A DNA stretch of 63,544 bases, filler included, from Klebsormidium nitens (taxonomy: Eukaryota > Plantae > Klebsormidiophyceae): the NCBI GenBank assembly GCA_000708835.1. It is 7 parts of 7 records of this genome, joined end to end, with 100 filler letters (N's around TTAATTAATTAA, not from the genome) between each part and the next. Parts side by side here need not be neighbours in the genome. Positions count along the whole stretch, not along the records: positions 18,720 to 28,096 come from DF238215.1; 6 more parts are not named here. One strand, 5' to 3'. Each line of letters opens with the position of its first letter. The stretch's first letter is position 1. A program made the position numbers and the translations under genes. The notes below the pieces were generated by a model. That model saw only the letters and a program-made list of their open reading frames with translations. It was not told the origin of the DNA and did no database searches. Positions 5,879 to 43,178 of the stretch are shown here, in pieces.

Positions 5879-6769
5879 TAAAGGTGCCATAGGGGCACAG
5901 CACTAATCAAATAGATGTGTTTATTGCTACGTCTTTTCAGCTTTCTGAGGTGCAACAGGGGCAATCGGTCTTCAAACTAGCGTTGTTTATGCTCTGCCTT
6001 TCAATCTTTCTGATCTGGTTTGCAGAAATTGAGTATACATGGTTGCAATGTCTTTGTGGTTGATGAAGAGATTATACTTGGCAGAGTCGTCAGCAAGATC
6101 AAGCCCGTGCTGGAGGTGAAATATTGTGAGCGCTCAATTCATTGTATCAACTCTCCTGCAGATTCCCCNNNNNNNNNNNNNNNNNNNNNNNNNNNNNNNN
6201 NNNNNNNNNNNNTTAATTAATTAANNNNNNNNNNNNNNNNNNNNNNNNNNNNNNNNNNNNNNNNNNNNCTTCTCCACAGATATGCCCCCTGCTCCAAGAG
6301 CGTCAAATATCCCACTTCCAATAGCCCCCCAAGACCCTTGGCATAGGCGTGAAAATCGTCTTGAAGTCTAGCCAAGACCCGATCCGCCCTTGCCTCACCG
6401 GCCGCAGGCGTGTCAATGGCCACCCCCCGGGCCTTCTCCAAGTTCAGAGGATTCTCTTGCTCCTCCAAGCGAGGTTGACGACTTGATGGTACGGCTCGTC
6501 CTCCCACGGTAGCAGCAAGAGACGGCCGTTGCCACCAATGCGCTCCCCGCAAAGCTCTCCATTGCAGCCGGCGCCACAAAAGCATGACGATTTCGGAGGC
6601 GCTGCACCTGGCCGATGCCACTAGGTGTTGCCGTGCACTTTTGATGATGGAGGTCGCGTTGGCTATTTCGGGTGTCTTCCTCGTTTTTGTTGAGACACGG
6701 GCATTCAGGGTCCAAATCTCTGGATGGTTTTAGAGTTTCAGGATCACGAGGTGGGCGGTAGGTCGACGA

Positions 6770-11254: not shown

Positions 11255-13070
11255 CTATGTACGTGGCTCGGGCAAAGGATTCTTTGGAAACTTGACAGCT
11301 ATCACTTTCGAGCGGAAGCCGAATGAGTTGGCTTGGAGCTTGCGGGATTGCCGAGCTCGTTTACTACCCTGAGAACAATTATAATGGCTTTGGAGGGCGG
11401 CTTGAACTCGGTGGATGGGGTTCCGCCGAAGCTCTTGGTGCATGAGCAAGGATTTTAGCGGCGCAAGGAAGCGGGTGGTGGTGGGTCGGACTCCGCTGTG
11501 GCTTATGTAGCTCAGCAGAAAGGAAGCAAGGAGAAGAGCCACGGCAAGGATGAGAGCCGGGGCCGAAGGGCTACGATTGCGGTGACCTTGGTCACATTGC
11601 CCGAAAGTGCAGGAAGTCGGACGGGATGGAGCACAAGCTGGAGCAAAACATGGAAGGAAACCCTTCCAAGGGATTGGCCTTTAGCGTGATTGAGGGGGTA
11701 GCTGCCAACGACTGGCTCGTAGATGCGGGTAGCTTACAGTACCTAACCGTGGACAAGAGCCTATCTGAGACCGTTGAAATGTTCGGGGGGAGTGGCCGAG
11801 AGTTCTTGTTCGGAGACAAGGGAACCTTGTGGGCAGAGGGGAGCGGCTCGGTTAAGCTGCTGTGTGCAACATCGACGGAAGACTGTCTCGTCACTTTGCA
11901 AAACGTGGTGTACGTTTCTGGGGTTGCGGCAGACCTTATTCCGGTGAGCAAAGCAACCGCGGTCGCTTTAGTGTTGTTTAAGGAGACCGCCAACTGTGAG
12001 CTTGAGGTTGACGGGGAGAAAATCCTTGTAGCTCGGAAAATGAAGAGGCTACGTGGTCAATCAGGCGGAGAACGCACCATCTCCAAAAGTGGCTTACAAA
12101 GGGCCGCTTTCGGGAAATGGAGCAGGAGGGCGCGCACCGGAAAAAGACGCATGCTTCCTTGTGAGCAAGCCGGAGCGGCCGAGCTGTGACATCGACGGAC
12201 AAGGCACGCCGGGTATGAGAACCTGGCGAAGATGGTGCAAGACAATCTCATTGAGGAGGTTGGCAAGCAACCAGGGGCATTCAGGTCGCTCAAAACCTCG
12301 GTTTGAACGCCGTGCATCACGGGGAACCAAACGCGGCTTCCTTTCCAAGTGTCGGAGTTGGTGAGAATAGAGCCTCTCGAGTTGGTCCACATGGATGTTT
12401 GCGGCCGATGCCGATTCCCTCGGTCGGGGGATCAAAGCCGGTACTTCGCCACGTTTCTGAACGACCACCGCAAACTCTCGGTTGTAGTCCCCATGAAGCA
12501 GAAGAGCGAGGTGGCCAAGTTGACTGAGCACCTAATTAAGCGGTTGGAGTTGCAAACGGGGAAGAAGTTGAGGTCGGTGCGGACGGATTGAGGGAAGGAG
12601 TACATTAACAAGGCCCTCACGGATGTTTTTGGGGACAAGGGGACGGTGCGCGAGAAGACCGCCCGCTACACGGCCGAGCGGAGCGGGTTGGCAGAGCGAA
12701 TCAATTAGCGATTGGATAAGAAGGTCCGGGCAATGGTCGAGGACTCGGGGCTGCCCAAAGAGATTTGGGTGAAAGCCGTTGTGACGGCCAACTACACACG
12801 AAACCGAACCCCGATAAGCATGGCACGAGAGGACCCCGTGGGAGGCGTTCAACGGCAAGAAGCCCGACGTTGGGCACATGCGGACGTTTGGAGCGCGAGC
12901 CTACAGGCACGTCCCCAAGCAAGGATGACGGAAGTTGGATTCGGTAAGCGAGCGGTGTGTGTTCGTGGGGTATGAGCCGGACTTCAAGGCCTACCGGGTG
13001 CTCGGGGAGAGCGACGGGAGGATCATGATCTCCTGGACGTCATCTTTGACGAGGGCGGGGGGACAACGGG
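11255..13070 (+). mobile_element. Degenerate Ty1/copia internal region B (gag zinc knuckle, protease, pre-integrase, integrase)
   Basis: YDCGDLGHIARKC knuckle remnant (~11570-11610); 'WLVDAGSLQYLT' protease; 'LWHRR..HAGYENL' pre-integrase; 'PLELVHMDVCG'; 'KKLRSVRTD*GKEY'; 'FVGYEPDFKAYRV'. Stops and frameshifts throughout. Confidence 0.88.
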
Positions 13071-18535: not shown

Positions 18536-18720
18536 ACGGCACGACTGCGCACCGACTTCTGGCTGCGCGCCAAACTCGCGGCCGCGCATCGTCCGTTATT
18601 ATACGCTATCGACTTATTTNNNNNNNNNNNNNNNNNNNNNNNNNNNNNNNNNNNNNNNNNNNNTTAATTAATTAANNNNNNNNNNNNNNNNNNNNNNNNN
18701 NNNNNNNNNNNNNNNNNNNC

Positions 18721-21372
18721 AGCAGCGGGCAGTGGGACGCCAGAGCGGGTGGCTCGCAACCTGCGCCACACGGATGCAGGCAACTCGCCGCAGCGCGCGT
18801 GCAGGAGGCGCACAAGTCTGACTCAGAAGGTGGGCAGTTTCAAAACCCGCAGGACAATGTTGCTAGCATCAGCCAACAGGATGTCCCCACGATTCTGAGC
18901 CAGGGAATGGACGTATCACCGCAGGCGCCCATGTTGGTTGCAATGCCTGTGGCTGAGCAGAATGACATCATCGATGTGTCAGAGCCGGAGCTTGTTAACA
19001 CAAGTGCGCAGAACAATACCGCGGTAGGGACAAGTGAAGAAGAGTCCCCATCAGGAACTGGCTCTGACTCAGAGGATTTCTCAGGGGAGCTCACTGCAAC
19101 GGATGACATTAGCGAGCCCACTGAGTCCGGGGAGCTTTATTCCCCGTCAGAAGATCAGAGTAGCAAGGAGGATTCCTCGGAGCTGGAGCCCAGTGAGTCA
19201 ATGACCCCCACGGAGTCAGAAACCACAGGGACAGACAGCTCAACCTCTTCCTACCGCTCTGCAGAAACCGACGACGAGCTCACCTCCGAGCACGTCGGCC
19301 GCACCTCTTCCAAGCTGGCCGCCTTCCGGGAGAAGACGGAAAAGCTGCGGAAGTACGATCCCACAGATCGGAAGGTGGGAACCACCCTGGACTGCCTCCA
19401 CCCCTGGAGCAAGACCCACTACATCCACGACCCCGAGCACCTCCCCAACTTCTGGAAGAAGACCGCCAGGTGGAAGAAGAGGAAGCTCGGCGCCACCCTC
19501 TGCATCGGCAACCGCCGCATCCCCAGCGAGGGCAAGGGCAAGAAGAAGTCGCGGGCGGACAGTGTGGGCAAGGTGGACAAGGTCATGATCGCCCTGGACT
19601 GCCTTCACAAGCCGATGCAGGACGAAAAGCAGGTGGACCGGGTTCTCGCCTGGATCGACAGGGCGGACGCCGCCCAGCGCGACTACGTGGAGCGGCGCAA
19701 GGCGGAGCCCCCCAAGGTCACCAAGGTCAAGAAGCCGACGGCGCAGGACGTGGCGGACGCCCTCAACAAGAACACTGAGGCGTTCAAGACGTTCGCCGCC
19801 GCTCTAGCCCTCCCCGAAGGCGCCAGCCTGCAGAAGATCATCCAGGACGGCTTGGCGGCCCAAGGAAACTCCCTGCCCGTCAACGGGGACCAGCCCACCG
19901 AAGCCCAGGACCAGGGGGCAGAGGAGGGCGCGGGTCCCCTCGACGATGACGACAACGAGCTGGACGAGCGGGATGCGGAGCACGAGGCCGCAGCCGGAAG
20001 CGCCCACGAGGACGAAGACGCGGAGGACGACGCAGCCGACTCCCCCCAGGAGGCGGCCGCAAAGTCGGACCCCGCCGCGGACAAACCCTCAGCGCAGCCG
20101 GCGGTTCAGACCTCCGCAGCCCACAGCTCCCCCCAGCGGTCCTCAACCCCCGTCCAGTCAGCACCTGCGCAGACCTCTGCACCTCTTGAGGCCCCTGCGC
20201 AGGCCGCATCTACCCCAGCTGTGCAGTCCCCGGCCCCAGCGGCCTCTGCGCAGCTCCAGAACAACCAGGCAGCGGCAGCCTCACCGCCGCCTCCGGCCCG
20301 CGCAACCTCTGCGCAGCCTGCCGCCCAGGTGCCTCTCCAGCAGCCGCCGCCACGCGCGACTGACGTGGAGGACCTGCGGTCCAGCAGCCCCGCGCGCCCC
20401 CAGGGACCTGACCATCCGGGGCAGCGCCAGCCGGACGACACCGCGACTTCCACGCCGCCCAGGCCGCGCGCCCAGGGACTTGACACCCGGGGCCTGCGCC
20501 AGCCTTCGCCTGCGGCCGCAGAGCCGCACCACGACACCACCCCTGACCCGCCGCCCACGCGCAAGAAGAACAAGCGGGACAGGAACCGGCCCCCATACGC
20601 ACCAGAGCCAACGCCCGCCGCTGAAGGAGCGGCCCAGGCGCTCCAGGCTCTGTCCGGGGACCCGTACGAGCTGGAGGAGACGCGCCCCCGCCGGCGCAAC
20701 CGCGACAGCCAGCGCCCCGACACCACGGGCGCCGAGGGATCCCTCCCCCTCAAGAAGAAGAAGAAGAAGGCGGAACCTGCCCTGGAGAAGGGTGGGACGG
20801 ATGTCCGCCAGGGCCTGAAGGAGCTGAAGGAGCTGAAGGAGTTGAAAAAGTCGAAGGTGGAGAAGAAAACCAAGCTGGCCATCATCGACCCCGAAGAGCC
20901 CACCAGCGACCGCAAGCCCAAGGCCGGGAAGAAGCGGAAGGAGGCGGCCTCGTCCACCACCGACACGGACGACCTCGCCATCTGCGCCAGCCGCAGCAAG
21001 CTCCCTCCCCGCCAGGACAACCAAAAAGTAAGTCCTGGACAAATTCGAACACTCAGAAACACAAGTGTCCTAAAAATGCCCACAGCCCACCACACAAGGA
21101 CTTTGCGTGAACAGGCCTGTGCGGCACAAACCAACCTAGAAGATCCTGTTACACCAGAACCCACTTCTTCGCTTGGACTAACCAGCACACAACAATCTGC
21201 TGTGGCCCAAATCTTAGAATTAACGGAAGGCGTGGAGTTACAATTTCATTGGACCTCCGCGCACAACCTTCCCTGCAAGTTTCTGGACATGCTAGGACAT
21301 GGGTTGAACATTCTGGTTCAGTCTCGCTGGCTGCTTGTGACGGCGGGGCTTGTTAGCACGCCGTTGGATTGA
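18721..21372 (+). CDS. Long ORF1 (gag-position, low-complexity S/E, A/P/Q and K-rich)
   Basis: Stop-free frame of ~880 codons from the gap edge; no canonical gag motif recognised; directly upstream of the protease contig. Confidence 0.65.
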   Translation, partial: SSGQWDARAGGSQPAPHGCRQLAAARVQEAHKSDSEGGQFQNPQDNVASISQQDVPTILSQGMDVSPQAPMLVAMPVAEQNDIIDVSEPELVNTSAQNNTAVGTSEEESPSGTGSDSEDFSGELTATDDISEPTESGELYSPSEDQSSKEDSSELEPSESMTPTESETTGTDSSTSSYRSAETDDELTSEHVGRTSSKLAAFREKTEKLRKYDPTDRKVGTTLDCLHPWSKTHYIHDPEHLPNFWKKTARWKKRKLGATLCIGNRRIPSEGKGKKKSRADSVGKVDKVMIALDCLHKPMQDEKQVDRVLAWIDRADAAQRDYVERRKAEPPKVTKVKKPTAQDVADALNKNTEAFKTFAAALALPEGASLQKIIQDGLAAQGNSLPVNGDQPTEAQDQGAEEGAGPLDDDDNELDERDAEHEAAAGSAHEDEDAEDDAADSPQEAAAKSDPAADKPSAQPAVQTSAAHSSPQRSSTPVQSAPAQTSAPLEAPAQAASTPAVQSPAPAASAQLQNNQAAAASPPPPARATSAQPAAQVPLQQPPPRATDVEDLRSSSPARPQGPDHPGQRQPDDTATSTPPRPRAQGLDTRGLRQPSPAAAEPHHDTTPDPPPTRKKNKRDRNRPPYAPEPTPAAEGAAQALQALSGDPYELEETRPRRRNRDSQRPDTTGAEGSLPLKKKKKKAEPALEKGGTDVRQGLKELKELKELKKSKVEKKTKLAIIDPEEPTSDRKPKAGKKRKEAASSTTDTDDLAICASRSKLPPRQDNQKVSPGQIRTLRNTSVLKMPTAHHTRTLREQACAAQTNLEDPVTPEPTSSLGLTSTQQSAVAQILELTEGVELQFHWTSAHNLPCKFLDMLGHGLNILVQSRWLLVTAGLVSTPLD

Positions 21373-21465
21373 ATACATTTACGGCTGTCAGTCTGCTTAC
21401 ACATGTGCGGAAACCATGGGCAAGCTTTACAGCCAACAGACAAGGNNNNNNNNNNNNNNNNNNNN

Positions 21466-22229
21466 CAGCGGCAGCCTCACCGCCGCCTCCGGCCCGCGCA
21501 ACCTCTGCGCAGCCTGCCGCTCAGGTGCCTCTCCAGCAGCCGCCGCCACGCGCGACTGACGTGGAGGACCTGCGGTCCAGCAGCCCCGCGCGCCCCCAGG
21601 GACCTGACCACCCGGGGCAGCGCCAGCCGGACGACACCGCGGCTTCCACGCCGCCGAGGCCGCGCACCCAGGGACTTGACACCCGGGGCCTGCGCCAGCC
21701 TTCGCCTGCGGCCGCAGAGCCGCACCACGACACCACCCCTGACCCGCCGCCCACACGCAAGAAGAACAAGCGGGACAGGAACCGGCCCCCATACGCACCA
21801 GAGCCAACGCCCGCCGCTGAAGGAGCGGCCCAGGCGCTCCAGGCTCTGTCCGGGGACCCGTACGAGCTGGAGGAGACGCGCCCCCGCCGACGCAACCGCG
21901 ACAGCCAGCGCCCCGACACCACGGGCGCCGAGGGATCCCTCCCCCTCAAGAAGAAGAAGAAGAAGGCGGAACCTGCCCTGGAGAAGGGTGGGACGGATGT
22001 CCGCCAGGGCCTGAAGGAGTTGAAGGAGCTGAAGGAGCTGAAGAAGTCGAAGGTGGAGAAGAAAACCAAGCTGGCCATCATCGACCCCGAAGAGCCCACC
22101 AGCGACCGCAAGCCCAAAGCCGGGAAGAAGTGGAAGGAGGCGGCCTCGTCCACCACCGACACGGACGACCTCGCCATCTGCGCCAGCCGCAGCAAGCTCT
22201 CTCCCCGCCAGGACAACCAAAAAGTAAGT
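21466..22229 (+). repeat. Second near-identical copy of the ORF1 GC-rich segment
   Basis: Matches ~20270-21033 with scattered substitutions; isolated contig between 20-N gaps. Confidence 0.85.
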
Positions 22230-22249
22230 NNNNNNNNNNNNNNNNNNNN

Positions 22250-22603
22250 CCTAGAATTGATTACTCAGGACCTAACCCCGCTTTCTTAATTAACGGTGTG
22301 GCCCTGGATTGGTTAACAATTGACACTGGCTGTGAGAGTGTAATTATCTCTAACTGGACAGCCAAACGGTTAGGAATAAATTCAGAGATGCGGCAGCAAA
22401 AAGCCATGAGTCTTATCACAGCAGATGCAATCACCACAGCACCTGTTGACAGGACTTGGGACACAGTTGAAATCTCGATTAACCCAGGGACTTCTGCGGC
22501 AACAACGGTCCAGGTTAAACTAACCATTGTTCCGTCACAGACCCGCGAAACTCTAATTGGGATGAGTGTAATTGGGCGGATTGGGCTTACACCCAATCCG
22601 TAG
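22250..22603 (+). CDS. Retropepsin-type aspartic protease domain
   Basis: 'WLTIDTGCESVIIS' (DTG at 22322-22330) and C-terminal 'TLIGMSVI' motif. In-frame TAG at 22601-22603; the frame continues into the DNMT ORF. Confidence 0.85.
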   Translation, partial: PRIDYSGPNPAFLINGVALDWLTIDTGCESVIISNWTAKRLGINSEMRQQKAMSLITADAITTAPVDRTWDTVEISINPGTSAATTVQVKLTIVPSQTRETLIGMSVIGRIGLTPNP

Positions 22604-22660
22604 ACCCAAACACTCACATATTACCCCAGGTGGTGGGAAGAAAACTCCACCACCACAGAG

Positions 22661-24034
22661 TTGCCCTCTATTTTCAACGTTGACCTACTCAACGCAGGCC
22701 TCAGCGCCGCCACTAGCTCTCGCTTAACTAATGTCACACTTTCCTACGCAGGACGAGTGACGGCCCCACGGGCCCCCAGACCGCCTCCAGCCTTTGTACA
22801 GCTATGTACAGGACCAGTCCCAGCGCCCCAGACAACGCGGGAGGAGCGAGCCGTAAGGCTCCAGCTAGAGTTTAGGGATCAGTTAGACACGCAGAGTGTT
22901 ATTACTAGCTTCCAGCGTAGCATTCGTAGTTTGACCGAGCCACCAGAGCCGGCCATCCTCTTAGCTCTTAGATACGGATCTCCATTGGATCCAAATTTTG
23001 TGGACATACATGAACAAACAGCTATTAACAGCATAGGCATAGTCATAATTGAACTGTGTTCTGGACTATGCGCGGCGACAGAAGCGCTCGTTCGCGCAGG
23101 TGTAAAAGTCCGCAAACTTTATGCCTGTGAGACAGATCCAATGTGCCGTTGTGTGGCCCAACAACGATTAGTTACACTCACCCAATTGTTTCCGCATCCA
23201 ATTAATGCCGACGCTATTATACACAGCCATGAGCAGCTGCCGCATGACATCGCTGAGATCATGGAGCAGCATATATCTGAGCTTGAACCGCCGGACATCG
23301 TAATTGCCGGATTTCCGTGTCAAGGATTTTCATCCGCAGCAACAAAGCCGCTTGGCCTTCGTGACACACGGACAAGCTTATTCCACACATGCGTAGAAAT
23401 AGTACGATGGATCTATCATCAACATGGGCCATGTATATGGCTGTTTGAAAATGTTGACGCTACCGACCATCGCAACACACAAGTCGCACATGAATACAAT
23501 CACATAGTGAAAGGCATATTAGGCCATGGAGTGGCCTTTGTTGCCGTTGCGGTCGGCTCATACGCTCACCGCCACAGACGCTTCTGGACCAACGGCATGC
23601 CAGCCGCATTATTAGGTCACATGGTCACACATACCTTTGAGAATTGTGTGCCCACTCAACAATCAGTCTGTGACGTAATCGAGCCTCATCACGAAGCTCA
23701 ATTGGCTGCACATGATTCAGTGCCAGGCAACTATGTGGTCAATGAAATTGGGAAACCACTACGCGCGTTCTCCACTTTCGTTACAGTTCGAGGCTCACAT
23801 GCATATCGCAATAATGGGCATAGTCTCTTAATTAACACAGAGACAGGACAACTCGAAGAACCAAACGCTAATGAACGCGAAGCTGCAATGGGTTTTATGG
23901 TTGGCACCACCAATTGTGCCACCGTCTCAGAAGCAGATCGCATGCGCATGCTAGGGGGGACCATGGACATGTGCCAAATTAAGTTCATTATGAGCTCCAT
24001 CATGGTTTTCCAACACGCCTTCTTCTTAAATTGA
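22661..24034 (+). CDS. C5 cytosine DNA methyltransferase domain (DNMT3-like), retrotransposon-encoded
   Basis: Motif I 'IELCSGL'; II 'ACETD'; IV 'IAGFPCQGFS' (PCQ 23315-23323); VI 'LFENV' (23447); VIII 'HRHRRFWTN'; IX-X 'EREAAMGF…RMRMLGGT', paralleling DNMT3 'EMERVFGF…RQRLLGRS'. Confidence 0.93.
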   Translation: MPSIFNVDLLNAGLSAATSSRLTNVTLSYAGRVTAPRAPRPPPAFVQLCTGPVPAPQTTREERAVRLQLEFRDQLDTQSVITSFQRSIRSLTEPPEPAILLALRYGSPLDPNFVDIHEQTAINSIGIVIIELCSGLCAATEALVRAGVKVRKLYACETDPMCRCVAQQRLVTLTQLFPHPINADAIIHSHEQLPHDIAEIMEQHISELEPPDIVIAGFPCQGFSSAATKPLGLRDTRTSLFHTCVEIVRWIYHQHGPCIWLFENVDATDHRNTQVAHEYNHIVKGILGHGVAFVAVAVGSYAHRHRRFWTNGMPAALLGHMVTHTFENCVPTQQSVCDVIEPHHEAQLAAHDSVPGNYVVNEIGKPLRAFSTFVTVRGSHAYRNNGHSLLINTETGQLEEPNANEREAAMGFMVGTTNCATVSEADRMRMLGGTMDMCQIKFIMSSIMVFQHAFFLN

Positions 24035-24460
24035 CGGCGTGCAGAGTCACAGTTAGTTAAATTACGCAACACTAATGTGACTCACCTAGCTAAACTCAGT
24101 CGGATTCCTACATCGCGACCAATCGCACCATTCGAATTGTACCAGCTTGCAGTTCTGAACCACCGGTCTATAATGTCTCACCCCGATTTTCGCACAAGAG
24201 TGCATAGCAAACGACCTGGATGGTATGTTCCCTATGCAAGGGGGGGGGAAGAGCCAATTCACTTTGCCAACGACCGTATGCAAATCACTTTGCCACCTGA
24301 CAACACAAATTCAGGCAAGAACAACGATTTGGATCAAACAGATTCAAGCCTAGAGAACCCTAACCACCCTCTCAGTAGACAAGAAGCCAGGCTTCAATAA
24401 AGACGTGCAGGCAAGGGCAGTGATCACCCCCCTGAAAAACGTAGAGAGCAGGCAACTCAT

Positions 24461-24901
24461 TTGAAAGTTACTCTCAAACATGCTGGGAAGGAAGGGCCTC
24501 AAACCGGTCTACTTAACCAAACTGTTAACCACACAGACTTACCAAAGCAGACTGCAGCAGCCTTAGGCTCAGAGCCTGTTAAGGCCAAAGGTTTAACTGT
24601 TGAACCTGCAAAAACAGCAGAGGAAGAATGGAGTTGGCCCCTAGGAGCAGCATTAACAGAAAACCAACGAATTCAGTTGATAGAGCTACTGGACAACTTC
24701 AAAGACATCTTTGCCTTCAACATGAAGGAAATGACCACCATACCTGGAGTTGAGTTTGAAATACCAGTCAGCGACGAAACACCCGTGTTCAAGCATCAGT
24801 ACCGCTTGGCGCACTCAGAGAAGGAAGATCTGGCGCAGCAAGTGGCAGAACGACTCAAGAATGGCCTTATCAGGTCATCCACATCGCAATGGGCCTTCCC
24901 C
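24461..24901 (+). CDS. Reverse transcriptase N-terminal region (gypsy type)
   Basis: 'LIELLDNFKDIFA…PGVEFEIPVSDETPVFKHQYRL…LKNGLIRSSTSQWAFP' is the typical pre-RT/RT start; cut by a gap. Confidence 0.9.
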
Positions 24902-24921
24902 NNNNNNNNNNNNNNNNNNNN

Positions 24922-25534
24922 ACCAAATTAAGTTCATTATGAGCTCAATCATGGTTTTCCAACACGCCTTCTTCTTAAATTGACGGCGTGCAGAGTCACA
25001 GTTAGTTAAAATACGCACCACTAATGTGACTCACCTAGCTAAACTCAGTCGGATTCCTACATTTCGGCTAATTGCACCATTCGAATTGTACCAGCTTGCA
25101 GTTCTGAACCACCGGTCTATAATGTCTCACCCCGATTTTCGCACAAGAGTGCATAGCGAACGACCTGGATGGTATGTTCCCTATGCAAGGGGGGGGGAAG
25201 AGCCAATTCACTTTGCCAACGACCGTATGCAAATCACTTTGTCACCTGACAACACAATTTCAGGCAAGAACAACGATTTGGATCAAACAGATTCAAGCCT
25301 AGAGAACCCTAACCACCCTCTCAGTAGGCAAGAAGCCAGACTTCAATTAAGACGTGCAGGCAAGGGCAGTGATCACCCACCTGAAAAACTTAGAGAGCAG
25401 GCAACTCATGAGAAAGTTACTCTCAAACATGCTGGGAAGGAAGGGCCTAAAACCGGTCTACTTAACCAAACTGTTAACCACACTGACTTACCAAAGCAGA
25501 CTGCAGCAGCCTCAGGCTCAGAGCCTGTTAATAG
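24922..25534 (+). repeat. Second copy of the DNMT end / DNMT-RT linker
   Basis: Matches ~23975-24590 with substitutions; lacks the TAA at 24398-24400 (TTA here) but keeps the TGA after FFLN. Confidence 0.9.
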
Positions 25535-25865
25535 NNNNNNNNNNNNNNNNNNNNNNNNNNNNNNNNNNNNNNNNNNNNNNNNNNNNNNNNNNNNNNNNNN
25601 NNNNNNNNNNNNNNNNNNNNNNNNNNNNNNNNNNNNNNNNNNNNNNNNNNNNNNNNNNNNNNNNNNNNNNNNNNNNNNNNNNNNNNNNNNNNNNNNNNNN
25701 NNNNNNNNNNNNNNNNNNNNNNNNNNNNNNNNNNNNNNNNNNNNNNNNNNNNNNNNNNNNNNNNNNNNNNNNNNNNNNNNNNNNNNNNNNNNNNNNNNNN
25801 NNNNNNNNNNNNNNNNNNNNNNNNNNNNNNNNNNNNNNNNNNNNNNNNNNNNNNNNNNNNNNNNA

Positions 25866-26588
25866 ATGATAGAGCACTTCTCAAAGTGGATAGAACTAGT
25901 TCCACTCATAGACAATACCTCAGAAGAGACGGCCAAGGCCTTCCTTCAAGTGTGCACCCACTTCGGGGCACCAGCAGAAGTACTCACGGACCAGGGGCAG
26001 GAATTTCAAGGCGAATTTGACACACTGTGCAAGGAACTCCTTATCGATCACCGCGAAACTTCGAGGGATCACCCACAAGCTGACGGCCTTGCAGAACGTA
26101 CTGTTCAAACTACAAAGCAAGCCGTGCGCAAATACGTGCTCACGCACGCAGTAGACACCTGGGATACATGGGTACCCTGGATTGCTATGGGCTACCGCAT
26201 GTCCAAGCAATTTGCATTAGGAAACTACTCACCCTACTTCCTAATGTTTGGACGACACCCAGTGGTAGGAGCTAACCTCCGAGACCTAATCAACACACCT
26301 GTTGACTTAGATGACCCTAAATTGTGGGCAGAAGTCATCGCCCACCGCGCCGAGGAGTTCCGTAAGGCCATACCCATTGCCTTCAGCAACCTCCAAGCCG
26401 CGCAACACCGAGACACCTTGTGGTACGCCAAAACCCGCACCGGGAAGTGGAGCCCAAAGGTAAAGCGCTTTGAAGTAGGCGATTTAGTCTACCTGCGCCG
26501 CAGAAAAGTTGACACCCTCGACGTTGATGTAGGCCGAATCATATTGCGAATCACTGAGGTCTTGCCCAGTGGAGCTCTTAGGCTATAG
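25866..26588 (+). CDS. Integrase core plus SH3-like C-terminus
   Basis: 'EHFSKWIELVPL…FGAPAEVLTDQGQEF…HPQADGLAERTVQTTK…SPYFLMFGRHP…FEVGDLVYLR'. TAG at 26586-26588 is in frame with the PHD ORF. Confidence 0.92.
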   Translation: MIEHFSKWIELVPLIDNTSEETAKAFLQVCTHFGAPAEVLTDQGQEFQGEFDTLCKELLIDHRETSRDHPQADGLAERTVQTTKQAVRKYVLTHAVDTWDTWVPWIAMGYRMSKQFALGNYSPYFLMFGRHPVVGANLRDLINTPVDLDDPKLWAEVIAHRAEEFRKAIPIAFSNLQAAQHRDTLWYAKTRTGKWSPKVKRFEVGDLVYLRRRKVDTLDVDVGRIILRITEVLPSGALRL

Positions 26589-26663
26589 GGAAGAGATGGC
26601 AGAACCATCAAGGATCACGTTGAGAATTGTGCCCCGTGCCATAATCCAACCATTGACCTAACA

Positions 26664-26846
26664 ATGGACACGACACTTTCGGGATATGACGAAGATTGGG
26701 CCTGTCAGATCTGCAAGAAAATAAACAGACCAGCTAAAATGCTCATCTGCAACTACTGCAGTGAGGGCTATCACATGGATTGCTTAGAACCACCAATTCT
26801 GAGGATTCCAAAAGGAGATTGGTTTTGTCCGCGTTGTGCATTGTAA
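26664..26846 (+). CDS. PHD finger at the Pol C-terminus
   Basis: C4HC3: CQIC…MLICNYCSEGYHMDCLEPP…IPKGDWFCPRC; in frame with integrase across one TAG. Confidence 0.93.
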   Translation: MDTTLSGYDEDWACQICKKINRPAKMLICNYCSEGYHMDCLEPPILRIPKGDWFCPRCAL

Positions 26847-26901
26847 ATCCTAGTAAGGGGGGCACTATTAACAAAGTTATACTTGTACCTATGCAGGAAG
26901 C

Positions 26902-27489
26902 ATGGCGTCCAGCTCTGCACCTCCAGACAGAACAGACCCACAACCGGCTCAGTCAGCCTCCGGGTGGGGACCACCTCCCGCACCCATTTCATTTCACGAA
27001 CTTATACCCATTGATAACCCACCAATACCGCCAGTATACCCCGAAAATGTATATTACGACAATACCAGGACCATGACTCTTTTTGAGTGGGAGCAGGGAT
27101 TCTGGCCCAATAAAAAGGCTCAACTCGCCTGGCGCGTTCAGCAGTGGGATGACCAAGTAAAAACCTTGGTGCGCACCAATTATCAATGGTTCGCCTTAAT
27201 CAATAGAATGTACAGGGAAATCGAAACAATCGAAAGACATAACGAGATGTTCCGTACCCCTATAACTATACGCCAATTTTTACTATTTCAGTGTCCACGG
27301 GCCGACTTGCTTCAGACTCTCCGCGATTGCGCAGAGCATTACCCAAAGAACGTAGTTATTACCAGACGCACAGGCACACCGCCGAGGAATGCCATGCTTG
27401 AGTTCATTGAGAAGCAAGTCAGTGCAGGCGAAAACGATTGTACCGCACCGTGTTCCAAGCAACATGTAGACAAATACGGCAATATTTAG
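26902..27489 (+). CDS. Orphan 195-aa ORF 3' of pol
   Basis: Uninterrupted ORF; ATG in AGCATGG context, 5 nt after a TATGCAG acceptor; Pro-rich N-terminus; no TM or signal peptide seen. Confidence 0.6.
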   Translation: MASSSAPPDRTDPQPAQSASGWGPPPAPISFHELIPIDNPPIPPVYPENVYYDNTRTMTLFEWEQGFWPNKKAQLAWRVQQWDDQVKTLVRTNYQWFALINRMYREIETIERHNEMFRTPITIRQFLLFQCPRADLLQTLRDCAEHYPKNVVITRRTGTPPRNAMLEFIEKQVSAGENDCTAPCSKQHVDKYGNI

Positions 27490-28238
27490 CAATAGTTTGG
27501 TAACAGTGGTGCTAAAACTACTCCAACGCCCCCGCTCCGCGACCCCGGATCAGAGCTGATGCCATACATGTATGGTGGCTGAGGAATAGCCCAAGCACTC
27601 ACTGCCACACACAGATAATAATAACAAACATTGCCGTTACCTCTTGCTTAACATAGGTTTCAATCATTGATAGAATTACGCAAGTTACCAGCATTGTTCC
27701 CATCAGTATGACACAAGCCCAAACCTCGTCGGGACGACTCGGTGGCTTAGGGGGGAAATAATGCATGACTATGAATTCCATACATAACCATACAACGTAC
27801 TCATGTAGTTTCATCGCTTGTCAATCAACACGAGCGCTCCGAAGTACCGAGCCTAATCAGATGCCGAGCCTATATCGCATGACAACTGTCCTGCAATAAT
27901 CCATCGGTGCCATATCGGCTCGGGTAATCGCTAAGCGAGCGACGCGTGTCACAATCGTGTAGTTTTAGGTTACGTAAATAACGATGTAGGTTAGCGCACC
28001 TAACTTAACCGTAAAACACATCGGATAGGATCATAAACCAACGGACCGTATTGGATAACCAGCGACCAACCATGGCCACTAGAATTCCATTATTGGNNNN
28101 NNNNNNNNNNNNNNNNNNNNNNNNNNNNNNNNNNNNNNNNTTAATTAATTAANNNNNNNNNNNNNNNNNNNNNNNNNNNNNNNNNNNNNNNNNNNNATTC
28201 TCAACACATCCCCCAACCTTCATCAACCTAGCACGTTC

Positions 28239-29075
28239 CTATGTGGTTAGAGGAGGGTTGCGCCTTTTTAGAGCGTCAATCTCCATTGGGACAAGTCCTG
28301 CAACAGGTGGGTTAGTAGGTCTGGTGAGGAAAGGGATGTTAGGTCGGGTGACAGAGAATCTCGCTGAGAATCTGTTTAACCCAATTATGCCAGGGGTAAA
28401 CAGGGAGTCGTAACGGTCAGCGAGCTTGACCGCGTCGTCGAAGGTCTGGGGCTTGCGCATGGTGACTTCCATGCGGGTCCTTGTCTTCAGACCTCGGAGG
28501 AAGCGATCCATGAGCTCCTCATCCTGCATGGAAGGGATTTGCAGAGCTAAGTCCTGCATCTTCTGCGCATAGATCCGTACGCTCCCTTCCTGTCTGAGGT
28601 CAGCAAGCTGATCACGAGCATGATGAGTAGCATTTACTACTCTGAACCCATCCAGAAGCTGAGGATGGAATGTGTCCCAATCATACAGAACATCAATCCG
28701 AGCTCCCGCCTTCTGACAGAGAAACCTCCACCAGGTCTTGGCCACGCCCTCGAAAGATGCAGCTGCAAAGAACACTTGCTTGTCAGCAGGTGTTTGCTTA
28801 GCCACAAAGTATTGCTCACAGTCAAAGAGGAAATTCTCAACTGCACCAGAAGCCTGAGAGCCATCATAAGCCTTAGGAGTAGGAATTTTCAGCTTAGAGT
28901 CTCCATCAGACGACATAGCAAGAGAAGCATGGGGTACAGGAGTGGAAGCAACTTGAACAGCAGGCTCAGCAGGGGTCTGGCTTGACAAACGCTGGATTTC
29001 CCCCTGCATGCTGGTCACCACTTCCACAATTTGCTGAATGGTGGTTTGCATGGTTGCAGGGTCTTCCAGGTTCAC
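28239..29075 (-). mobile_element. Ty3/gypsy gag (Retrotrans_gag type)
   Basis: 'KIPTPKAYDGS…VENFLFDCEQYF…FEGVAKTWW…ARDQLADLRQEGSVRIYAQKM…FLRGLK' canonical gypsy capsid pattern. Confidence 0.9.
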
Positions 29076-38253: not shown

Positions 38254-41200
38254 TCAATGACGCGACTCAACAATAGACGCGAGCGTGTTAAAAGTTCCTA
38301 CGACACCGAAGGTGGTGCCAAAAGCAATCAACAAATAATCAAATACTCGTGCGAACCAAGTTAGCTCCCCCTCAAAGGTTTTCAAATGAAACAAGCCCGG
38401 AAGGACGAACGCTAGCATAGCGCACACTGTGCTCCCGACCAAAGAAATGAAAATACCGAACCCCGGAACCGAGATGGCGATATATGCGGCGAGGAGCACG
38501 ATAAGCGCTCGGGCGGTGCGGAAGAGGGCAGTCCGGAGCCTGCGAGCGCGAGCTACGTGTTACGTAATGAAAAACAACAGCTGTTCCACTGTTCTATCAA
38601 CAGAGGAACTTGACGGACAAGAAAGAGGATTACATACCAAAGTATTTTGGGTAGCGGAGGTTCGACTTGCCACAACCGCCATTCACGACGACTTCACAGA
38701 ACGCTTCGACCTTTGAGCGAGCAGTCCAGATCCTCAATCGAAGTACGTTCTATCGTACTTCAGACCAGGCCAACAAAACACAGAGGCGCAGAGAAGCTTC
38801 GATGTAGGATACCAGATTGACTGAGGCTTGGAAATTAGGAAGTAAGTAGAATAATCGACCCCTCAGTCACTGCAGAGGCGTCAAACAAGGACCCTTGTCA
38901 ACCCTGAGTAGCAAGATGCTTCTCAAACAGCTCGTGCTTAACCCTCCAACTTCTCGCACACACTGTTTCGAGAAGCACCGAGCTCTTGTTGTGCACAGTA
39001 GGGAACACGTGTGAGGCCCCGAAACATGCTCACCTGGGTGAAGGCTCGACGTACTGACGGAACCACGAGAAGCTCATAAGCCGCCGGTCAGCGATCTCGT
39101 ATACGGGCACCATCATAACCGGGAAAGTGAAGAAAAGGCCGACCGAGAGCCCCAGCTTGACCGCTATGGTGGTCCAGTCGTGGGGCAAGTTTAACGTGAT
39201 AATGTCCTGCGGAAATGAAGACTATTTAGGATGAGCTAATTGACTTCGTATCCTAAGCAAGTCTGAGAGTAAGCGGCCGAGGCGGGTTTGGCCGCCTTCA
39301 GAGGTGGAAAGTACTACAAATATTTATTCTGCCTCTACACAGGTGGAAAGTACTACGAATGTTCATTTTGCCTCTACACTAATGACGAGCTTCGTGTCTG
39401 CGAACTCGAGAAGTGGCATCGTATGATGCTGTCAACCAGCAATAGGACGCCAGGGAAGAAAGCGAGAATGTCAGGGCAGGGCTTGACAATCTGTGAATGT
39501 TGGTTGCATTCGTGAGCCGCGTGTTTGCTACAATGGTATCGGTGGGATTGCAGCATTCAGCAGGTCGGTGTTTGATTGCCCCATCTGTGGGCCGCAAAAA
39601 GTTAGCAAACAATCTGTTATGAACTAGAATGTACGATTCATAGTTAACCAACTTCCACGAATCCCTTACCCGCGTCGCCTCGCCATAGGCCAGGTACCCG
39701 ATCATCCCGAACGACAGGTACACGAACGTGATTAACCCGATCGCTAACCCGAGCACCCATCCAAAGCTTTTCCGCTCCTTCATCGACTGCTCGATTGGCT
39801 GAGTCATGGCAAACCCCTCGAAGCAGTAAACCGCGACGCCGATTACGAACGGCGCTTTCGAAAGTGAGGTGAAGGCGTGCACGTGGCTGAAGCTGGACGG
39901 TCCAATGACTGCCACGTCGTCCTTGATGACGACAGCCATGGCGATCGCCATGAAGACGTCGGCGACGATCGAGAAAGGCGCGAGGCCTGTCAAGGATCGT
40001 ATCTGCGCAGAGTGTTGAATAACAACATCAGCAGACGTAAGGGAGCAGACGTAAGGGATCAGATATTTTTGGCCGAAGGAAATCTGACGTCACTTAAGAG
40101 AGCTAACCCGACGGCGGTACTAAGGCTGGAAGACTTTTGTAGCCGCAGAGGATTTTTCCTCACTAGATAGATAATGTGCGGAACTTCAAGACATGCTGGA
40201 CGGGGGACCGTATGAACCCTTTGTGAAGAGAGCTTTGAACACTGCAACGCCAATCCTGCGGTTCATGACATTGTCGCGCTCAATTGGGTTCGGACTGGAC
40301 TGTTATCGGTTGGTGATTAGACACTGCTCGCCGGCAGATGCATGAACACTATTTTGTCGAGAGGACGTGAGCAGATTGTGTAGATCAGCAGGGGACAAGG
40401 TTATGAAGTTCGGGCCTTCCGAACGGCCCGGGAATCACCTTGTTGACATCGGTTGTATTAGCGCACAATCAAGCACGCAATCCTAGAATCCTCAAACAGA
40501 AGCTACGTGCAGACTCTGGCTCACAGGAACCTCGAGAGAGCAAGTTCGGATATAATGCATCATCGTTCGTAATCAGACTAGCTGTCTCGAACGGGCTTTC
40601 GAATTGGCTAGCCGACTTCCGTTGCCTTTCTTCATCTCGCGGGAACAAAGCCAACCATCAAACACTTTATTGGGTCGAGGAAACCCGATGGACTTTTCTC
40701 CAACAGGAACTTCGAGCCAATATTGTTTGACCCTGTCCCGCCACTCACCCACGACAGCAAGATTTGCAGCGGCACAATGCTCGCAACAACCGCGACCCCC
40801 GACAAGTGCAGCGCAGACCCGACGTTCCCCGCAATCGTAACCAGGTAAGCGACGCAAAACCCGCTCTGGCTCAAAAGCACGCACCAATCCACCGCCTGCG
40901 CGCAAAACCCAAAACTCAGAACCCGGGGTTAAGGCGGGTTAACTCACCCAGGAAAGGAGGGTTTGGAAGGGGATCAGGAGGAGGATGACCGGGGTCTTGG
41001 GCAAGGGAACTAGCGTGCACAGGTTTTCGGCTATGAAAACTAGGTACGCGACGCAGCACCCCCCCTGGGAGATGACGACCGTTACGTCGGTCAACTGGCA
41101 GAACAGGGTTCAAGAGGGGTTAGCAAACAAACTGCAGGTTTCAGATATGTTGGTTTTGACTTACGATACTATTTTCGGCTATGGAAACTAGGTACGCGAT

Positions 41201-43178
41201 CCTGCACCGCCCTGCGAGATGACGACCGTTACGTCGGGTCAACCGCCAGACGAGGGTTAGAGAGGGTTACCGGACTAATTCTGGGCGGATTCTTTTCAGG
41301 TATTGAGTTTAGGCGATCAACCTCAGCTATTAGGACCTGGTACGCGATGCAGCTCCCCCCAAGGGGAGGACGGCCGTTACGTCGGTCAACTGGCCGAACA
41401 CGATTATAGCAGGTTTGCGGGAATAACTGCAGGCTTGAATGGTTTTTAGCATGCTTGTGGAATCTGGTCGAGGCTATGGAGACTAGTACGCTGCACGACA
41501 GCCCACTCGGTCAACAGGGTAAGAGAGGGTTAGCGAACCGAGGGTGAGTCACTGCAGGCCTGCTGTTGTATTGTCCTGACGTGACGAAGTTTGTTCCGAC
41601 TTCGAAGACTAAGCACGCGACGAAACAACTTCCCAGGAGATGACGACCATTATGACGGTCAACCGGCAGACCAGGTTTAGGATGGTTGGTTTGCGAAATG
41701 ACTGCAAACCTATTTGTCGTTTAGTCCTGCCGTGAAGAGGTTGGTTTCTGCTTTGAAATCTAGGTCGCGATGCAACCAGCCCCCCCGGCAAAAGACGACC
41801 GCTACATCAGTAAACGGGCAACAGGAAACTTTCGAGAATGTTGGCAATCTGACACAGCCCGTTAGTGCAGTTTGTGACCTATGAACCATGATTTGCAAAC
41901 AAACGGAACGAGCACCAGATTCAGGATAGAAAGGGTGCAAGTCGAACAACCATGTTCGGATCTTCGAAAAGACCTAATGAGAGGGGAAGGCCGACTACGT
42001 CAACCCCTCAAACAGGTAGGCTAGTGTCAGAGCACGAAAATGCAGAGTGCTCTATAGGGTACAGGGTCTATAGGGTCAACTCTGACCGTTGTCAACCTTT
42101 GAGAGGACGCACTGATGCTGAGCGTTTCAGGGCGTAGGAAAATGGAGCTGGCGTCGCCCAGAAGGACAATGTGTTTTGGATGTACCGCAGAAAGGAACAC
42201 CGCCACTCAAAGTTCAAGAGGTACCGTAGTCCAAGGTAATGATTCCAAATAAATTGATATTTATTTGCATTCGGAAAGTGGAATTTCGGAAAGGTTAAAT
42301 AATTCTGGAATGGTCCTCAGAAGCCCCAAAACGGCCAAAATCAGCCTTCAAATCCCCCTCTTAATGAGAACATAGGGCAGTCGGATTGTTGTCGGAATCA
42401 GCATAGATGAATCCACTTTTCTGTCGGAATGTTGAAAAAGAATTCAATGTAAAATCGTTCGGAATCATCACGATGGACTACGGTATTTCCAAAACTTTTG
42501 AGATTGGGCCTGGTTAAGCAAACCCACCTGCCGCCCAAAGTTCCCCAGCGAATGGAAGCCCAGGTCTCCGTAGGTGTGCACCTCGTGGTTCTGCTCTTTC
42601 AGCTTGGCCGCGCATTTGATCTGCAAAACAGAGAATCTGTACTGCTCAAAACGGGTCATCATCGAAAACTGGGAGAAAAGACGTTCAATCGCAGGTTCTT
42701 TTGGCATACGTCCGCCCGCATTGTTACCCTGACAAGGGTCAGAATCTCGCGGGAGACCATCCTTCATAAGGCAAAGGCACTTGCGCAGGGCGAAGGCCAT
42801 GCACGACAAAGTGGTCACACAGTGCCACGATCAAGACGCTGCGGTTTTACACCTGCAGGTGCTTGAGCGAGCTTGAAGGAGAAGAGTGTGGACAGTTAGC
42901 TGCCGGAAGGGACGACCTATCCACGAACCTTGGAATGTCAGCGATTCACGGATACAGGCCTTACCGTAAGTACTGGTAATCGATCGGTAGAAATAAACAT
43001 CCATCGTCCGAAGGAAAGCAAGGAGAAAATGGATACAGGCCTTACCAGTAGCATCATGCAGTACCAGGCCAGCGCCCCTGCAGCCACGATGCATATTGAG
43101 CCGAGCAGGTAACCGCTCTCCTTGAAAGCATACGGCAGGCCCAGCACTCCCGCGCCGACAATTGAGATTACAATGTTC
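38254..43178 (-). CDS. Amino-acid transporter, AAAP/Aa_trans family (AVT3/ANT-like)
   Basis: Phase-compatible GT-AG exons 43046-43178, 42528-42620, 40749-40895, 39670-40002, 39034-39206, 38254-38539. Motifs 'NIVISIVGAGVLGLPYAF', 'TYGDLG', 'GVAVYCFEG', 'ISLVGSTVCAMLAFVLP'. Start exon (~43330-43500) unresolved. Confidence 0.93.
41020..41850. repeat. Intronic array of six degenerate ~148-bp units
   Basis: CTAGGTACGCG-like anchors at 41040, 41188, 41336, 41483, 41609, 41760, most followed by GATGACGACCGTTACGTCGGTCAAC-like cores. Confidence 0.8.

Follow-up and report, generated by a model that had tools for sequence, protein, structure and literature searches.

Gypsy-Dnmt3 elements of Klebsormidium nitens were published in 2018 (de Mendoza et al., PMC5890265), and 'Gypsy-DNMT3' is the name given to such elements of streptophytes in a 2026 preprint (bioRxiv 10.64898/2026.05.21.726589). 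KnitGypsy-Dnmt3 is of LTR/Gypsy type, and its coding region is described as containing a Dnmt3-type domain, intronless and unrearranged, that is inserted 'into the Pol polyprotein ORF'; readthrough, frameshift and protease are absent from the text of that paper, in which the layout may be drawn in figures or supplements (PMC5890265). SymbioDIRS-Dnmt3 and SymbioLINE-Dnmt of Symbiodinium are likewise retrotransposons with a captured C5 methyltransferase, the former also of the Dnmt3 type and shown to perform de novo CG methylation in yeast, but they belong to other orders (tyrosine recombinase, LINE) in another host lineage and are independent captures according to the authors (PMC5890265). The EpiLTRs of Euglena and Cymbomonas are Gypsy-type elements in which a chromatin reader accompanies the DNA methyltransferase; their DNMT groups next to DNMT4 and is combined with a chromodomain and a DAM adenine methylase (bioRxiv 10.64898/2026.05.21.726589), whereas the element described here is without DAM.

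The window, i.e. the whole stretch of 63,544 nucleotides from K. nitens, filler included, that was analysed, contains several scaffolds joined by N44-TTAATTAATTAA-N44 spacers, and the element lies on the one at 18720-28096, with all features on the plus strand. It belongs to the already described kind Gypsy-DNMT3, so that the sequence-only reading was right to presume that the class was not new. We consider it likely that the locus is one copy, dead and broken up in the assembly, of a multi-copy Ty3/gypsy-type element whose ORF1, encoding a gag-like region, a protease and a DNMT3-type methyltransferase, terminates in a conserved UGA-CGG, with predicted occasional readthrough into an in-frame RT-RNase H-integrase-PHD. 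The predicted readthrough junction, the position of the DNMT at Gag level and the PHD-bearing integrase add detail to the known kind, and no description of them was found in the literature searched, as far as those sources go.

Sequence comparison establishes kinship with K. nitens element proteins. Relatives number 38 at E<=1e-3, plus 10 longer ones, the nearest to the window protein being 72-84% identical. The K. nitens protein KFL_013780020 (P0068), with CCHC, protease and DNMT within one ORF, is 49% identical to the window DNMT, in a match that covers 80% of the query at E 3.7e-107; GAQ91782.1 is 35% identical. The CCHC/protease/DNMT order and the ORF end are shared, and seven long relatives run from CCHC and/or protease through DNMT to the protein end. 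The window element differs from KnitGypsy-Dnmt3 in falling into another clade of the family, and its DNMT ends the gag-protease ORF, whereas the published text speaks of Pol (PMC5890265). The K. nitens gene models P0036 and P0073 pass from the DNMT directly into RNase H/RT, apparently through an intron predicted over the stop.

The gag-like N-terminal part of ORF1 (18721..21369) is open from the first scaffold base, Pro/Ala/Ser-rich and of 64% G+C. Its residues 774-872 align with residues 520-618 of a 1344-aa relative (P0041; 44% identity, E 3e-20), a region upstream of that relative's protease. No CCHC knuckle is present in 18721..21369, nor in the nearest relatives P0041 and P0065, so the label 'Gag' is given by position; in relatives further removed, one or two knuckles are present. 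The sequence-only reading had assigned a C5 methyltransferase of its own to a Ty3/gypsy-type element, after a DTG protease and before the start of an RT in the same frame, with an integrase following after gaps, and sequence matches on the gap-free contig 22250-24901 and downstream bear out each of these assignments. On this contig the protease, the methyltransferase and the N-terminal part of RT share a single frame. The retropepsin-like aspartic protease (22250..22600; PF13975 E 2.5e-9, PF13650 E 9e-7) has Pfam matches spanning 22130-22603 and its DTG triad within 'LTIDTGCES', and upstream of 22253 contigs of public sequencing runs prolong its frame. The final part of the contig (24401-24901) has no Pfam match of its own and aligns at 55% identity (E 4e-35) with the sequence upstream of RVT_1 in related metagenome contigs; beyond 24901, public-run contigs read on ...ITMPPKKDEN, as do those related contigs. 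The contiguity of DNMT and RT, proposed earlier as a check, is likewise found on the single metagenome contigs L001 and L003.

Between protease and stop lies a linker with a long helix followed by the methyltransferase (22604..24031, core about 23006-24031), which is DNMT3-like by sequence, profile and modelled fold. PF00145, the profile by which the assignment was to be checked, matches at E 5.3e-12 with 46.2 bits, where the cut-off is 22. The motif set that had been read as complete is complete, with I (ELCSGLCA), IV (GFPCQGFS), VI (LFENVDA) and VIII (SYAHRHRRFWTN) in canonical order, PCQ and ENV intact, and the IX/X region (RAFSTFVT ... EREAAMGF ... LGGTMD) in place. The DNMT3 likeness, first suspected from motif spacing, agrees with searches that put DNMT3A/B/C first: DNMT3A was the best phmmer match in the PDB (1.6e-6), and a family profile search gave DNMT3A/3C/3B at 6e-14 to 3e-10, M.HhaI at 1.7e-7 and DRM at 0.1-0.3, with no DNMT1 or CMT among the matches listed at E<=10. 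Foldseek with the AF2 model (pLDDT 74.6, pTM 0.79) returned only DNMT3A/B/C among the matches listed (E about 2e-13, target TM 0.70-0.78).

The integrase catalytic core (C-terminal part) with its downstream region (25866..26585; rve E 3e-8) matches 22427 library proteins at E<=1e-3, the best at 58% identity. It is followed by a C-terminal PHD finger and the pol stop (26589..26846; finger about 26703-26837, TAA 26844-26846). The finger (PF00628 E 2.4e-13, 50.3 bits) occurs at the same place in 37 of the 38 integrase relatives scanned, and the nearest solved PHD fingers are those of CHD4, KMT2D, PHF21A, ATXR5 and KDM5A/B, which we take to be mostly readers of unmodified H3K4. By analogy with chromodomains, which steer integration in chromoviruses, the finger might direct integration by reading histone H3 tails, a role we regard as plausible, if short of probable. 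A histone-tail reader fused to the integrase C-terminus is also found in chromoviruses and in PHD-bearing retrotransposons such as REM1 of Chlamydomonas (PMC6673714); the reader of chromoviruses is a chromodomain, whereas that of the window integrase is a PHD finger.

Occasional readthrough of the UGA would supply the DNMT in coat-protein amounts and RT and integrase in small amounts. The protease could free the DNMT within the particle, where it may methylate new cDNA ahead of integration. Such cDNA methylation, also envisaged by the sequence-only reading, is the hypothesis of de Mendoza et al. 2018 (PMC5890265), and we put it forward tentatively. It is somewhat unlikely that an active enzyme is instead directed at host chromatin near the insertion, other DNA or RNA. 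A DNMT made with Gag-protease would be abundant and might leave the particle, and the authors list such roles as open, raising RNA methylation for the LINE-borne DNMT (PMC5890265); the DNMT3-type fold and the DNA-enzyme motifs VIII (AHRxRxFWxN) and IX-X, however, fit DNA rather than RNA.

The amounts envisaged depend on the junction, TGA-CGG at 24032..24037, a conserved native stop. Its column (TGA 24032) is the exact end of 30 of the 44 proteins matching the last 120 residues, spread over four supported clades, several of the 30 sharing 90% clusters and so counting as fewer independent cases. Only five junctions, from three clades, can be read as DNA (both window copies, L001, L002 and L003), and all five have T-TGA-CGG; no variant at the site is among those listed for the run contigs spanning it. 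ORF2 begins with a poorly conserved linker and the N-terminal RT region (24035..24901) in the frame of ORF1, open past the stop for 183 codons in the second window copy (contig 24922-25534), 225 in L001 and 221 in L003. Since the TGA is conserved as ORF1 end and RT follows in the same frame, the element can be written as gag-like-PR-DNMT / UGA / RT-RH-IN-PHD. No protease is present in the clade's pol ORFs, and one called protein (P0092) starts within the RT N-terminal block.

In alpha-, tobra-, furo- and coltiviruses, type II readthrough is signalled by UGA-CGG together with a stem that begins behind a spacer of 7-12 nt (PMC3159437). A hairpin of 8+5 bp is predicted at 24044..24083, 9 nt past the stop (z -2.0 for 100 nt), with counterparts 7, 7 and 9 nt past the stop in L001, L002 and L003, resembling the UGA-CGG and stem 7-9 nt downstream at alphavirus nsP3/nsP4, tobravirus and furovirus replicases and coltivirus VP9 (PMC3159437). 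As in these viruses and in gag-UAG-pol of murine leukaemia virus, an in-frame stop separates an abundant upstream product from the polymerase; the type II viruses differ in having extended stems, whereas predicted local hairpins are found in this green-lineage retrotransposon. Among same-locus 50-nt windows the hairpins rank at 0.124 (window), 0.005, 0.005 and 0.065 (L001, L002, L003) in stability, single z-scores range from -0.8 to -2.0 across junctions, the hairpin sequences differ, and RNAalifold gave no shared structure or covariation across them (3 pairs, -0.57 kcal/mol). We infer that readthrough at this predicted site is rather probable. Use of the UGA as a plain terminator, with ORF2 expressed from a subgenomic or spliced RNA, an internal promoter or non-AUG re-initiation, appears unlikely. 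It has a precedent in Tca2 of Candida, whose gag-UGA-pol junction with a pseudoknot gave no readthrough in a yeast reporter and for which such alternatives were proposed (PMC2194720), and it would agree with the weak hairpin statistics, the lack of covariation and the in-frame Met codons within the linker of the window and L001. Against it, the ORF2 frame is identical at every junction and open from the first codon past the stop, CGG is invariant despite saturated synonymous divergence between the junction clades (pS 0.79-0.88) and a share of only 10-20% of Arg codons, and L003 has no Met ahead of the conserved RT block.

A domain devoid of catalysis, retained as a DNA-binding or structural module, is quite improbable. 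The K. nitens domain produced no methylation in yeast, a result its authors call inconclusive (PMC5890265), and Glu replaces the motif IV Pro in most members of a sister architecture. In the window's own family, however, PCQ with the catalytic Cys, whose presence the sequence-only reading had named as a check, and the E and N of ENV are kept in 39/39 aligned members and motif VIII in 34-37/39, in a sample gathered by shared words that favours conserved motifs, and dN/dS is 0.11 over 476 codons (L001 vs L002).

The scaffold has four gaps and two redundant contigs. That at 21466..22229 is a second copy of 20270 onward (98% identity over 300 nt compared), and behind 22229 run contigs continue like the first copy; that at 24922..25534 is a second copy of 23974 onward, comprising the DNMT end, TGA-CGG and linker (97% identity), and one run contig joins 24239 to 25190. 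The scaffold thus mixes at least two copies. A 330-N gap takes the place of the RT core, RNase H and integrase N-terminus, which are absent from this copy's assembly, and no LTR pair is present within 18720-28096. With these parts missing, LTRs unpaired and copies mixed, it is scaffolding and comparison with relatives that place ORF1 and IN-PHD contiguously within a single physical copy. That a host DNMT3 gene was scaffolded or mis-assembled beside retrotransposon pieces, as copy mixing and gaps might suggest, is practically refuted, since the single gap-free contig 22250-24901 carries the protease, the DNMT, the stop and the start of RT, this order recurs in dozens of proteins from elsewhere, K. 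nitens included, as well as on metagenome contigs of independent origin, and there are no introns and no host-DNMT3 PWWP or ADD domains.

The one-frame collinearity claimed by the sequence-only reading holds for 22250-24901, but four in-frame stops had been missed (TAG 22601, TGA 24032, TAA 24398, TAG 26586), and the domains do not form one uninterrupted polyprotein because the DNMT ends ORF1 at the conserved stop. The other three stops are private to this copy. At TAG 22601..22603 relatives have Tyr, and among the four runs of one sample three yield contigs with a Tyr codon and one has the window's TAG; TAA 24398-24400 breaks the ORF2 start where the second copy has Leu; and TAG 26586..26588 is a Gln codon in contigs of all four runs, the alignment with P0074 passing over it unbroken. 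The window copy, as read from its sequence, is dead, and as each of the three private stops corresponds to a sense codon in other copies, intact copies probably exist elsewhere in the same genome. Contigs of public sequencing runs indicate a multi-copy, polymorphic element, in which 17 of the 34 between-copy differences listed are synonymous, including 15 of 24 in PR+DNMT, with 149 further differences outside the count. CpG o/e of the element is 0.71-0.87, a depletion no stronger than in an unrelated neighbouring Ty3 fragment (0.65).

Downstream of the pol stop, an ORF3 of 195 aa (26902..27486) has a read depth equal to the element interior and gave no Pfam match, no usable Atlas lead and no match to the ORF1 of relatives. 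A polypurine-like tract (AGGGGGGAAATAA) and, tentatively, the probable start of a 3' LTR occupy 27748..28096, where the element is cut by the scaffold end; read depth increases roughly five-fold from bin 27682 on, and the breaks of several contigs fall within 27721-27887.

The copy on the scaffold at 18720-28096 is very probably a Gypsy-DNMT3-type retrotransposon, in which a first open reading frame (ORF1: gag-like region, protease and DNA methyltransferase, DNMT) ends at a UGA and is followed by a pol frame (ORF2) for reverse transcriptase (RT), RNase H, integrase and a PHD finger. The sequence-only reading had proposed, at 22250..26846, a Ty3/gypsy element encoding its own C5 methyltransferase between protease and RT, and the domains it named were all recovered. 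Protease, DNMT and RT start lie in a single frame on one contig (22250-24901): the aspartic protease possesses its DTG (PF13975, E 2.5e-9), the C5 methyltransferase matches PF00145 (E 5.3e-12, 46 bits where the cut-off is 22) and has the catalytic motif set listed in that reading, and the RT start shares 55% identity (E 4e-35) with the segment immediately ahead of RVT_1 in related contigs. The integrase was indeed found behind gaps (core at 25866-26585, rve E 3e-8), and the order protease, RT start, integrase, with integrase last, fits that of Ty3/gypsy (Metaviridae-type) elements. The Dnmt3-type domain is located within the element's own coding region and is intronless, as it shares a contig and a frame with protease and RT start. 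The collinear frame thus stood, yet it is interrupted by TAG 22601, TGA 24032 and TAA 24398, and the integrase frame by TAG 26586, four stops that the reading did not mention. Past TAG 26586 the integrase frame continues into a PHD finger (PF00628, E 2.4e-13) up to the pol stop at 26844, the end that the reading had given to the element. The RT core and RNase H of this copy fall in a scaffold gap; the nearest integrase relatives, P0090 and P0092, contain RVT_1, RT_RNaseH, Integrase_H2C2, rve and PHD in one ORF.

The gag-like front of ORF1 occupies 18721-21369, and its end matches the protein P0041 just upstream of the protease of the latter (E 3e-20). No Pfam gag or CCHC nucleocapsid domain was detected in 18721-21369; the scaffold starts inside ORF1, the 5' end of which is missing. 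CCHC is also absent from the nearest relatives P0041 and P0065 and present in P0050, P0059, P0068, P0071 and P0072. The gag-like region further contains a 9-nt tandem repeat coding for (K/E)ELKELKEL (20801-20878 and 21988-22074), in a stretch of 64-66% G+C that is rich in Pro, Ala and Ser and open in several frames on both strands. Within 18720-28096 no repeat pair corresponding to two LTRs was found. Near 27750 lies a polypurine-like tract, and run-contig depth jumps five-fold at 27682; this depth, which does not measure copy number, served solely to locate the jump. Both point to a probable 3' LTR from about 27760. Between pol and this point, and inside the element by read depth, an ORF3 of 195 aa (26902-27486, plus strand) had no Pfam match and no relatives, and its Atlas scores of 0.80-0.83 came with low recognition and are not usable. 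CpG depletion, considered as a trace of self-methylation, gave a signal that was not specific.

The scaffold consists of five contigs (18720-21445, 21466-22229, 22250-24901, 24922-25534 and 25865-28096) separated by gaps of 20, 20, 20 and 330 N. Two of these, 21466-22229 and 24922-25534, are near-identical second copies set in line by the scaffolder, in accord with a contig that joins 24239 to 25190 in one of four public sequencing runs of a single sample, possibly the source of the window. Run contigs extend the frame on both sides, past 22253 upstream and past 24901 downstream, as in relatives, so these contig ends are assembly breaks, and the many further between-copy differences in the runs indicate that the retrotransposon family is multi-copy.

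Concerning the four in-frame stops, TGA 24032 differs from the other three. Matches to the final 120 residues of the window DNMT were seen in 44 retrieved proteins, of which 30 end exactly at the TGA 24032 column (44-86% identity), including K. nitens KFL_013780020; several of the 30 share 90% clusters, and together they cover four supported clades in a 39-row tree that leaves out proteins with fewer than 280 aligned residues. For the remaining 14, the gene models are truncated, degenerate or spliced. Long relatives display CCHC knuckle(s), protease and DNMT and then end, and a DNMT-RT fusion was found in one of ten 'longer' matches, namely P0074, which has another layout. By this comparison of protein ends, TGA 24032 is the native stop of ORF1.

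At TAG 22601 relatives have Tyr at the same position, and contigs of three of the four runs carry a Tyr codon with TAG in one; TAA 24398 is Leu in the window's own second partial copy (24922-25534); and TAG 26586 is Gln in contigs of all four runs. These three stops are private defects of a dead copy. A different premature stop occurs at 25992 on one run contig. An alternative genetic code was rejected, as the frame is broken by stop codons of three kinds, two of which are replaced by sense codons in sister copies. Selenocysteine at UGA 24032 was set aside since there is no reason for expecting it there.

The sequence around the native stop suggests how pol is expressed. All five junctions for which DNA was available, i.e. 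the two window copies and the related metagenome loci L001, L002 and L003 (three clades), read T-TGA-CGG, and in every junction extending far enough the RT frame equals the ORF1 frame and is open from the first post-stop codon (183 open codons in window copy 2, 225 in L001 and 221 in L003). Since synonymous sites between clades are saturated (pS 0.79-0.88) and CGG makes up only 10-20% of Arg codons, the identical TGA-CGG is not inherited noise. In L003 the stretch from the stop to the conserved RT N-terminal block is free of Met. A stable hairpin is predicted 9, 7, 7 and 9 nt past the stop in the window, L001, L002 and L003, with stability ranks among 50-nt windows of the own locus of 0.124, 0.005, 0.005 and 0.065, respectively. 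Type II readthrough sites have UGA followed by CGG or CUA with the ORF continuing in frame, and Firth et al. 2011 (PMC3159437) describe the signal as UGA-CGG followed, 7-12 nt further on, by a stem; UGA-CGG and the in-frame continuation are common to these sites and the five junctions. This layout predicts programmed readthrough, to which the UGA at the end of ORF1 is, on balance, probably subject. Counting against this reading, such a junction in Tca2 was reported to be insufficient for readthrough in a yeast reporter (PMC2194720), RNAalifold on four junctions returned no common structure and no covariation, the z-scores of the hairpins are modest, and the junctions are few.

The sequence-only reading had also called the enzyme DNMT3-like, and sequence, profile and fold comparisons, all among solved structures only, agree with this. 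Used as a single sequence, the METHYLTRANSFERASE matched DNMT3A best (1.6e-6), then 3C and 3B, then M.HhaI (2e-4). The family profile widened the gap between DNMT3A (6e-14) and M.HhaI (1.7e-7), followed by M.HaeIII (1e-3), DNMT2 (0.03) and DRM (0.12-0.33), and DNMT1 and CMT were absent from its matches to solved structures at E<=10. With the AlphaFold model of the DNMT (pLDDT 74.6, pTM 0.79), Foldseek returned solely DNMT3A/B/C among the matches listed (E about 2e-13, target TM 0.70-0.78). Among solved structures the window DNMT is therefore closer, as judged by these comparisons, to DNMT3 than to DNMT1, CMT, DRM, DNMT2 or bacterial enzymes; its placement in the Dnmt3 clade rests on what PMC5890265 reports for K. 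nitens kin. Motifs I, IV (PC), VI (ENV), VIII, IX and X are in unrearranged order, motif VIII (SYAHRHRRFWTN) aligning with AHRARYFWGN of DNMT3A, and 39 of 39 aligned members retain PCQ together with E and N of ENV; these members were found by a word-based search, which favours conserved motifs. Whereas animal DNMT3A/B have N-terminal PWWP and ADD readers, neither was found in 22604-24031, where PF00145 is the sole Pfam match, and the PHD finger on the integrase is the sole reader module of the element. Ahead of the methyltransferase core, at 22790-22940 (residues 62-111 in the piece of 476 aa), lies a long helix that is common to the family and confidently modelled (pLDDT about 85). As to selection, Ka/Ks below 0.2 is given for the DNMT of K. 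nitens elements in PMC5890265; we found dN/dS of 0.11 over 476 codons between L001 and L002, of a clade other than the window's, and a partial list of between-copy differences in the window's own clade holds 15 synonymous and 9 nonsynonymous changes over protease and DNMT.

Searching with the integrase piece revealed 22427 proteins at E<=1e-3 among 1.84 billion representatives. A PHD finger lies about 200 residues past the rve core in 37 of 38 scanned long relatives from the best 150 of these. The nearest relatives P0090 and P0092, each about 1000 residues long, have the compact make-up RT-RNase H-IN-PHD and lack a protease, P0092 begins within the RT N-terminal block, and the window protease matched none of the best 150, which fits a protease housed in ORF1. 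In 52 of the same 150 (e.g. P0074, P0096, P0116-P0117, P0128, P0133-P0135, P0141 and P0189), a domain recognised by the window-family DNMT profile (E down to 1e-70) stands after RNase H and before integrase, as part of a single pol ORF that ends in a PHD finger, and so the same DNMT type occupies two places in one Gypsy clade. In this sister layout GWECQDLS mostly replaces GFPCQGFS, i.e. Glu for the motif IV Pro, and most members have LENT/IENT for ENV. The two layouts may derive from one capture that moved or may represent two separate captures. Together with the PHD-integrase, the sister layout shows that the clade is large and diverse and not peculiar to a single alga. Outside the protein library, a metagenome scan (80 loci kept) yielded L001-L003 as the only relatives, the other loci matching methylases of phages, giant viruses or bacteria only in part, at 25-40%; no relative came from viral contigs (80 loci) or prokaryote genomes (8 loci, the best with 35% over some 80 residues).

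Hosts defend themselves against transposons chiefly by cytosine methylation, so a transposon that itself bears the writer is an unusual case of swapped roles. We consider it an even call that Gypsy-DNMT3 is a two-gene machine, with a particle-loaded DNMT on the Gag side in the bulk gag-protease-DNMT3 product, a conserved viral-type UGA-CGG readthrough doling out RT-RNase H-integrase and a PHD reader on the integrase, thus a 5mC writer and a chromatin reader in one element, and with a large sister group in which the same DNMT has shifted to a place between RNase H and integrase and mostly has Glu instead of the catalytic-loop Pro. The genomic RNA would be translated mostly into gag-like-protease-DNMT, occasional readthrough would give a fusion adding RT-RNase H-IN-PHD, and the protease would cut the parts of fusion and ORF1 product apart in the particle. 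If the DNMT is indeed made in bulk with Gag and protease, and RT and integrase by readthrough only, the enzyme would likely be packed in particles at high copy number, a load that would fit methylation of the cDNA before integration; that DNMT at coat-protein level acts on the cDNA is a tentative and somewhat doubtful proposal. The PHD finger might guide the integrase to chromatin of a given H3 tail state, which we rate slightly higher, if still short of even.

The sequence-only reading had expected the class not to be new, rightly so: KnitGypsy-Dnmt3 was described in K. nitens by de Mendoza et al. 2018 (PMC5890265), and homology with the window element extends beyond the methyltransferase core, 22250-24025 matching aa 585-1158 of the K. 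nitens protein P0068 (KFL_013780020) from protease through DNMT (blastx, 42% identity, E 9e-131). The same paper reports a DIRS-like repeat layout for K. nitens elements. Later work names 'Gypsy-DNMT3' of streptophytes (bioRxiv 10.64898/2026.05.21.726589), treats retrotransposon DNMT3s in streptophytes (PMC12344493) and shows retrotransposons with PHD fingers to be already known (PMC6673714). The window copy adds no class; the comparison adds testable anatomy. In the literature searched, with subscription journals outside its scope, we found no description for DNMT-bearing Gypsy elements of readthrough, a PHD-integrase, the conserved stop or the Gag-side DNMT position, parts of which the 2018 figures may show. 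Two K. nitens gene models, P0036 (GAQ91782.1) and P0073 (KFL_014710010), run from the DNMT motif X region straight into the RT end and RNase H and lack the C-terminus of the DNMT, the stop and most of RT. Gene prediction has probably placed an intron over the stop, with the effect that the DNMT would seem to belong to Pol.

The window comprises several scaffolds rather than a single locus, joined by six spacers N44-TTAATTAATTAA-N44 (at 6169, 13446, 18620, 28097, 30970 and 37194) with stops in all six frames, so that neighbourhood across the spacers is meaningless. On other scaffolds host genes with introns occur: an Aa_trans amino-acid transporter (38263-43216, minus strand, five or more exons by tblastn), one exon of which shares about 55% of its residues with proteins from Spirogloea, Mesotaenium, Closterium and Riccia, a liverwort, and so marks the host as streptophyte-like and nothing narrower, and an Mpv17/PMP22 gene with an exon at 48192-48512 (plus strand). 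The scaffold that follows 18720-28096 in the window, with a CpG o/e of 0.65, carries the Gag of another Ty3-type element, unrelated to the DNMT element (28242-29075, minus strand; Retrotrans_gag E 2e-14, Ty3_capsid E 5e-14), and a Pol_BBD domain at 11554-12186 (plus strand, E 6e-8) is a fragment of a further retroelement.
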